In this document: positions 20,933-21,337 of the stretch, piece by piece | Numbering within the stretch: the stretch's first letter is position 1 | How the letters are laid out: the number at the start of each line of letters is the position of its first letter | NCBI GenBank assembly: GCA_951406725.2 | Contig: OX597816.1 | Coordinates: 62,806,001 to 62,870,000 of the forward strand | Source: Octopus vulgaris | Taxonomy: Eukaryota | Direction: 5' to 3' | Length of the DNA: 64,000 bases | Made by a program: the position numbers and the translations under genes | The notes under the pieces: model-generated | Seen by the model: only the letters and a program-made list of their open reading frames with translations | Told to the model about the DNA's origin: nothing | The model's database searches: none

Positions 20933-21337
20933 AAGTGGGACAAGAACGTAAAACATCCGGACAACTAGGTGAAACAAAAAGGGACAACAAAACATCCAGA
21001 TAGATGATACAAAGAAAGCAAGGACGGGTCATTCGAAGTTTTCTATCTTCAGTCAAGAACCTGATTATTCTCACAATTTCGGCTGATTATTCTTGAGACT
21101 GCTCCAATCTGGCCAACACCAAGGAAAAACTAAGTTAAGAGCATTAGATTCCTTGGAAGAAAACATCCACTGTATACAAAAACAAGGAGGGAAAAAAAAC
21201 AATGTTACACAAATATAAATACAATAAAACTAATGACAGGACATAAAAACAGGTGTCTTTCGACTAAGGACGTATTGAATTAAGCAGGCGTAGGTTTCAT
21301 TTCCACACGCGCCAGCTTAATTCAATTCGTCCTTAGA
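20933..21337 (-). mobile_element. Probable PLE LTR-like fragment ending in a ~27-bp hairpin
   Basis: T-rich on minus, next to (TA)n, contains a hammerhead core; CTAAGGACG-ATTGAATTAAGC-GGCG at ~21264 is inverted at ~21309-21336. Confidence 0.6.
21038..21164 (-). ncRNA. Rearranged (non-circularly permuted) hammerhead ribozyme motif with intact core
   Basis: Minus strand: GTTTTCT-t-[CCAAGGAA...TTCCTTGG]-TGTTGG-CCAGATT-gga-GCAG-TC-TCAAGAA-taa-TCAGCC-GAAA-TTGT-gagaat-AATCAGG-TTCTTGA-CTGAAGA-t-AGAAAAC; perfect 7-bp stem I; GUC cleavage triplet. Confidence 0.75.

Follow-up and report, generated by a model that had tools for sequence, protein, structure and literature searches.

We detected in the octopus genome a dispersed repeat family that very probably represents a non-autonomous Penelope-like element (PLE) of the Naiad kind and carries, close to its 3' end, the sequence of a self-cleaving hammerhead ribozyme, with the catalytic core arranged as a CSG circular permutation opened between A9 and G10.1. 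Our verdict, reached from sequence comparison, is that the fold would represent a new variant of the hammerhead class at the level of the family. The window, i.e., the whole 64-kb stretch of DNA that was analysed, carries one copy of the family on its minus strand, for which a first-pass annotation had proposed a rearranged hammerhead. The motif was borne out at the family level, while the choice of the window copy as the best active candidate was not.

The proposed RNA would run from 5' to 3' through helix X, hairpin H, the 5' strand of stem II, helix Z, a kink-turn (k-turn)-like loop, stem III, the NUH triplet with the cut, stem I and a short linker, followed by the 3' strand of stem II, GAAA, stem III, the k-turn-like loop, Z, stem I, CUGAnGA, and X. 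Stems I, II, and III would meet at the core and, via Z, at their far ends, forming a cage. The k-turn-like loop, by kinking, may let stem III bend back, and X and H potentially hold A9 beside G10.1. The parts of the window copy and its genomic setting are the following.

21297..21336, plus strand: inverted 5' piece of the same element (97.5% over 40 nt, BLAST)
20927..21290, minus strand: Penelope-like repeat copy, 3' half, 5'-truncated, non-coding, unit of ~700 nt (BLAST)
21158..21164, minus strand: helix X, 5' strand, predicted to hold the 5' end against the strand that follows CUGAAGA
21119..21156, minus strand: hairpin H of 8 bp, adjoining position 10.1 on its 5' side (mean pair probability 0.95)
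21114..21118, minus strand: stem II 5' strand (helix Y of the first-pass annotation), displaced upstream
21106..21112, minus strand: helix Z, 5' strand, joining the distal ends of stems I and II and running on into stem III
21103..21105, minus strand: k-turn-like loop, non-bulged strand GGA, between Z and stem III
21097..21102, minus strand: block S, with the stem III 5' strand, U16.1 (21098), and C17 (21097)
21099-21097, minus strand: GUC triplet
between 21097 and 21096, minus strand: predicted cut, with a step in copy starts at this bond
21090..21096, minus strand: stem I strand after the cleavage site
21073..21085, minus strand: block G, with the stem II 3' strand (21085-21081), GAAA, and the stem III 3' strand (21077-21073)
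21080-21077, minus strand: GAAA
21067..21072, minus strand: k-turn-like loop, bulged strand, GAG-GA-U in the family, with G>A at 21069 in the window copy
21060..21066, minus strand: helix Z, 3' strand
21046..21059, minus strand: half block C, with the stem I strand (21059-21053) and CUGAAGA, and no stem II strand following
21052-21046, minus strand: CUGAAGA
21038..21044, minus strand: helix X, 3' strand, one nucleotide past A9
20843..20925, strand unassigned: (TA)n microsatellite, target or flank at the element's 3' end

The GUC, GAAA, and CUGAAGA motifs of the window copy correspond to the CUGAnGA, GAAA, and NUH core of hammerheads, as had been noted from the sequence. We also confirmed the helices described there: stem I consists of seven Watson-Crick pairs, X of 7 bp, and H of 8 bp, stem III and Y contain two G·U pairs each, and Y and Z have one mismatch each. 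The statement that a normal stem II is impossible was correct, the bases after CUGAAGA forming 0/5 pairs with those before GAAA, i.e., the stem II 5' strand is not contiguous with A9. Two details had been overlooked. The one mismatched pair of Y, U21118·C21081, is that which closes the core (10.1-11.1), so that stem II closes next to G12 in the family but not in the window copy (position 10.1 is G in 27/29 relatives), and 21069 is A where 27/29 relatives have the G of the k-turn-like loop. The mismatch in Z is A·A, with A at 21062 in the window copy and U in 25/29 relatives.

An S-G-C descriptor (core, stem I of at least 5, and stem III of at least 4) matched once in the window, compared with 0.013 matches on average over 150 simulated 64-kb windows, and the 64-kb window holds no second copy of the motif. 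Rfam produced no match at the gathering score within the 64-kb window, and five loci scanned by E-value yielded 109 matches, zero of them to ribozyme families and nearly all to microsatellite-driven miRNA and snoRNA models. Folding energy gives no support to the window copy (MFE z-score 0.21), and it is uninformative because the fold is doubly pseudoknotted, with stem II, stem I, and Z/III crossing each other. A minimal type I reading (CUGAAGA-UA-GAAA with a downstream GUC) was rejected, since no stem I partner was seen by eye.

At 10/161 sites the window copy departs from what most of its 29 nearest relatives carry, and, with a pairing score of 28.5/32, it is joint last of the 30 copies, whereas the L002, L005, L010, and L014 copies reach a score of 32 with full stems and an intact core (L002 is located at G000:C9:106581887-106582047:+). 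The family has perfect stems II (GGCUG/CAGCC) and III (GCAAU/AUUGC), and its triplet is AUC (A in 28/29 relatives), the GUC of the window copy being mostly a private change. The U·C at 10.1-11.1, the broken k-turn, and the two G·U pairs in the 5-bp stem III suggest that the window copy is probably slow or dead, and it is a poor test object for the ribozyme. It is a decayed copy, presumably made from an uncut template. The earlier proposal that the window copy itself is an active ribozyme draws on its unpaired core nucleotides, all intact, its perfect stem I, and an X that is better paired than in the family majority, but the defects listed above, its last place in pairing, and the pair probabilities of Y, Z, and stem III (at most 0.01 in the window copy vs 0.40–0.58 in L002) make it unlikely. 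Activity of the window copy is, in any case, compatible with the explanation that we prefer for the family.

A first look detected 2,873 candidates for the dispersed repeat, 40 of which were scored, the 39 others being 91–94% identical. The exact pattern of blocks G and C was matched 4,550 times, in comparison with 2 matches for the reversed control pattern, and the family copy number is at least 4,550. The full unit is ~700 nt long, and the best full-length matches share one fixed 5' start; the window copy aligned to the full unit L002 with 88.5% over 322 columns plus terminal pieces (BLAST). The family has the traits of non-autonomous PLE-type elements: (TA)n targets, partial tandems, a short repeated tail, 5' truncation, and 5' inversion. 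The 40-nt inverted piece at the 5' end of the window copy is typical of PLE insertions, and most relatives likewise have TA-rich sequence after the 3' end.

The family unit is non-coding, the longest ATG frame in the L002 unit being 33 aa in the sense and 60 aa in the antisense direction, and this unit contains no ORF with the N-terminal GIY-YIG and C-terminal reverse transcriptase (RT) domains of an autonomous Naiad. No autonomous element sharing the 3' sequence of the family was found, no Naiad ORF was found beside the Naiad-type copies L081 and L193-L202, and Pfam gave nothing significant on four frames near Naiad-type copies. Three 13–14-nt family motifs are absent from the supplement of PMC8557442. 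The common ribozyme architecture is the one feature that suggests a link of the family to Naiad mobilisation. Four contig sets, which we presume to be RNA, cover the family unit and, being contigs, reveal neither its ends nor its strand; no accumulation of ends was reported from them. At L202:55-1160 (G000:C14:27759022 onward), upstream of a Naiad-type 3' end, we observed by eye broken frames ending in a CxxC and GIY-YIG-like stretch with no Pfam match, probably from a different PLE clade.

Other repeats were observed in the window. A classical-order minimal hammerhead-like core (CUGACGA, short hairpin, GAAAC) at 42560-42630 on the minus strand, near a TA-flanked end, is probably a canonical PLE terminus. 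Two 134-nt tandem copies at 26204-26467 have several internal helices and no Rfam match, with a decayed reading frame downstream from ~26750. The region ~12600-18750 is a ~6-kb inverted duplication of microsatellite-rich DNA, with identical 70-nt stretches at +18715/-12677 and mirrored 214-nt arrays, and the tandem arrays at 23217-23825 (184-nt units) and 35822-36418 (61-nt units) resemble common interspersed repeats of the genome.

Patterns fixing only blocks G and C recovered diverged families of the same genome (139 vs 27 for the control, and 794 vs 9). We grouped 134 anchored matches into 51 clusters, 4 of which were dropped as microsatellite-truncated; the 47 clusters with usable upstream sequence include chance pattern matches, block S scoring at least 8 in 32% of them vs 5% of chimeras. 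Seventeen families were chosen from the clusters on block S alone, with 272 cross-family chimeras as the control. The displaced stem II scored at least 4/5 in 13/17 families vs 48/272 chimeras, and Z scored at least 5/6 in 10/17 families vs 59/272 chimeras, while the canonical stem II is absent (mean 1.2/4 across the 17 families). The first stem II pair (10.1-11.1) is G-C in 11/17 families, with C11.1 partly set by the pattern. H17 is C, A, or U in 9, 7, and 1 of the families, respectively, and N7 is variable. CUGAnGA and GAAA belonged to the search patterns, and the bulged k-turn strand partly so, whereas the NGA opposite the k-turn bulge, found in 12/17 families, was required by no pattern.

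In the unadjusted MAFFT alignment of 18 hand-picked copies, 26/30 pairs had double-sided changes, a count reached by 0/500 shuffles, and the true register paired 75.5% of cells vs 29–53% in slid controls. Double-sided changes were detected in 4/4 pairs of stem I and 4/5 of stem III, with 90–92% of cells paired, in 6/6 pairs of Z, and in 4/4 scored pairs of X. Stems I, II, III, and Z thus covary across the diverged families of this genome, although these counts are inflated by the relatedness of the families and do not represent independent events. Hairpin H aligns poorly in register (54.9% of cells paired), and hairpins of different sequence occupy the same place in other families; X is likewise less conserved in register, and it is weak in the Naiad-type family. 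The commonest subfamily has an A·C mismatch in Z in 16/28 copies and a U·U at the seventh stem I pair in 20/28, leaving a 6-bp stem I.

The k-turn-like loop has a 3-nt bulge and then G·A and A·G pairs in the family majority and not in the window copy; a looser k-turn pattern gave 0 matches in the window, because the window copy has lost the G. The pattern CCGAAANNNNGAGGA (6,103 matches vs 611 for the control) was rejected, the architecture being present in 0/18 of the fetched non-family loci, and the GAGC and TGTC variants recurrent under CCGAAANNNNGAGGA are unrelated repeats.

If the RNA cuts itself and the 3' product is reverse-transcribed, then copies should begin at the cut. Cutting of tandem or read-through transcripts, presumably by hammerhead chemistry, would free an RNA with its 5' end at the cut, and the Naiad reverse transcriptase/endonuclease may copy this RNA into (TA)n. 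We detected many genomic copies starting at or just after the predicted cut, as such copying would produce. Genome-wide, 172 starts after an A/T hexamer are located at 0/+1, 212 at +2..+4, and at most 44 at -1..-4 (an upper bound, since 13/44 have the sequence ATTAATC, including at least one untruncated copy, L007). Per position this corresponds to ~86, ~71, and ~11 starts, i.e., an approximately eightfold step at the bond. Among the matches listed by a gapped search (21 loci), 6 start at the cut, 12 at +2..+9, 0 at -1..-10, and 3 further upstream. In a position-ordered sample, 22/68 copies start at 0..+15 and 7/68 at -1..-40, with at least 3 apparent starts (L178, L263, and L051) being internal deletions and the starts at +11..+15 relying on five or fewer matched bases. 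In the second, Naiad-type family, 9/14 starts are at -2..+2, where a TA before the cut blurs the position.

Microhomology does not explain the step, because -1..-4 is at least as A/T-rich as 0/+1. We consider the step an indirect footprint of cleavage, and the scission first predicted between 21097 and 21096 is supported at the family level by this step together with the covariation. Copies extending upstream of the cut make up 46/68 of the sample, so cleavage would be slow or incomplete in vivo, and this agrees with the modest rates given for SGC and CSG ribozymes (0.004–0.19 per minute) in the accessible text of Eckert et al. 2023 (PMC10085705).

The conserved fold could also be hammerhead-derived and not catalytic alone, i.e., a protein-binding or RT-recognition element, or a ribozyme dependent on a helper such as a second RNA copy or a k-turn-bound protein of the L7Ae type, with the 5' step produced by a protein nuclease or an RT stop. 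The retention of the k-turn-like loop in octopus families, with its NGA, the abundance of copies from uncut RNA, and the helper proteins suggested for slow SGC ribozymes (PMC10085705, accessible text) agree with such a role. All catalytic nucleotides and the NUH are nevertheless kept while every stem changes, and N7 and H17 vary as they do in active hammerheads. The step coincides with the scissile bond, where no unread helix would be left to stall the RT, and -1..-4 offer at least the A/T microhomology of 0/+1 yet about eightfold fewer starts per position. We regard a fold that is not catalytic alone, with or without the helpers named, as improbable. The reading that short motifs fell into this arrangement by chance, and that the repeat has no conserved RNA structure, would agree with the MFE z-score, the lack of an Rfam match, and the looser G-block pattern that also matched two unrelated repeats without structure, but it is already largely refuted by the chimera and shuffle controls, the step at the predicted bond, and the recurrence with different stem sequences in several phyla, and we give it hardly any credence.

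Craig et al. 2021 (PMC8557442) described, in the text accessible to us, Naiads without canonical hammerheads, some of them with 'HHR_core' or 'HHR_half_core' motifs that fit no descriptor; this text gives no fold for the half cores and reads the lack of canonical hammerheads in Naiads as a hint that hammerheads may be mere parasites of PLEs. The last ~400 nt of 53/54 Naiad consensus sequences (PMC8557442 File S5) were read by eye. We detected the split-core wiring, with different stem sequences, at 11/53 Naiad ends, from ctenophore to octopus: Bfor (with a short stem I), 3_Chem, Amil, Aacu, Anas, 2_Movir, Plae, EuTe, Obim, Ovul, and Esco. The end of the Ptep Naiad has blocks S-G-C with a different arrangement before GAAA, and six nematode Naiads (1-3_Nbra, Hcon, Hpol, and Asuum) have a complete unsplit CSG, in which stems I, II, and III, along with the helix between stems I and II (equivalent to Z), are well paired. 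At ~17 bivalve, hemichordate, and cnidarian Naiad ends other conserved structured motifs are found at the same place, and these may resemble twister ribozymes. The remaining ends were incomplete or not parsed.

The second family of the octopus genome matches, by eye, the 3' ends of Naiad_Obim and Naiad_Ovul. The recurrence in Naiad consensus sequences, the family-level covariation, and the step in 5' starts sustain the junction model originally drawn for the window copy (X, hairpin, Y, Z, III, and I). The split-core hammerhead would appear to supply the 'missing' ribozyme to a group of retrotransposons that is widespread in animals. A TTGTCCC motif near the extreme 3' end of the element (window ~20935-20945, minus strand), a possible RT recognition signal, is common by eye to the family and to the Naiad-4_Chem, 2_Movir, and Ppla ends.

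We found no report of the split-core wiring or of permuted hammerheads in Naiads in the literature searched, outside of which lay most subscription papers and the supplements of PMC10085705 and of the bioRxiv preprint (10.64898/2026.07.22.740005). Our broader hypothesis, which we hold to be likely, is that hammerheads can undergo permutation within the catalytic core itself, that a natural active four-block hammerhead, with its core split at A9/G10.1 and held in a cage of Z, X, H, and the k-turn, is the standard terminal ribozyme of much of the Naiad clade, from ctenophores to cephalopods, and circularly permutes the CSG form that nematode Naiads retain, and that its cleavage in vivo is recorded in hundreds of insertion 5' ends, so that PLE ribozymes would define retrotransposition templates. 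If true, PLE ribozymes would be setting these templates and not merely riding along. The permuted hammerheads at Naiad ends and the genomic footprint make a functional role in template processing directly testable.

According to the accessible text of PMC10085705, the six-permutation hammerhead scheme assumes that block C is uninterruptible, and non-circular forms are almost only environmental. Thousands of copies of a split-core form in an animal genome would, if true, extend this permutation scheme and provide tractable constructs for structure and kinetics. The scheme also assumes at most 1–2 nt between CUGAnGA and its stems (PMC10085705, same text), which the A9/G10.1 split violates; therefore, the activity of the split wiring is a prediction. 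Non-circular permutations do cleave in vitro (PMC10085705, as far as its accessible text goes).

A standard kink-turn is described, in the accessible part of PMC4382518, as a 3-nt bulge with G·A and A·G pairs after it. The loop of the family fits this definition but sits inside a ribozyme stem; it is not evident by eye in non-cephalopod Naiads and is broken in the window copy. Like the type I hammerheads of canonical PLEs and non-LTR retrozymes (PMC8557442; bioRxiv 10.64898/2026.07.22.740005; accessible text of both), the octopus fold lies near the 3' end of a PLE-type unit that occurs in non-autonomous partial tandems, whereas those hammerheads, in the same sources, have the classical C-G-S order and an intact stem II. 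Searches with type I models would overlook the split-core fold. Non-LTR retrozymes, defined in the accessible text of the bioRxiv preprint as tandem units each with a type I hammerhead, differ from the family, whose order is not C-G-S and whose tandems are partial. With the Naiads, as described in the accessible text of PMC8557442, the family shares (TA)n targets, partial tandems, a short tail, 5' truncation and inversion, and core motifs outside the standard descriptors, while differing in its non-coding unit of ~700 nt.

The type-SGC ribozymes (HRIMA-1 and variants; PMC10085705, accessible text) resemble the octopus family in the S-G-C order of blocks, which is a non-circular permutation, in the short linker between stem I and stem II, in the full catalytic core, and in the additional helix that connects stems I and II at their far ends (Z here), which is described there for both type SGC and type CSG. 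In the published SGC forms, block C is whole, with the stem II strand directly after CUGAnGA, whereas the octopus family has this strand upstream, a core opened at A9/G10.1, added X and H, a k-turn-like loop in stem III, and thousands of copies in an animal genome. We did not file the family as type SGC, because the uninterrupted block C with its stem II strand, the defining feature of that type, is missing. Type CSG, represented by two metagenomic sequences in the accessible text of PMC10085705, has the same circular block order, C-S-G, and likewise a helix that joins stem I to stem II; its chain ends in stem III, while that of the octopus family ends inside block C. Judged by these likenesses, the window fold would be best read as a CSG hammerhead opened between A9 and G10.1.
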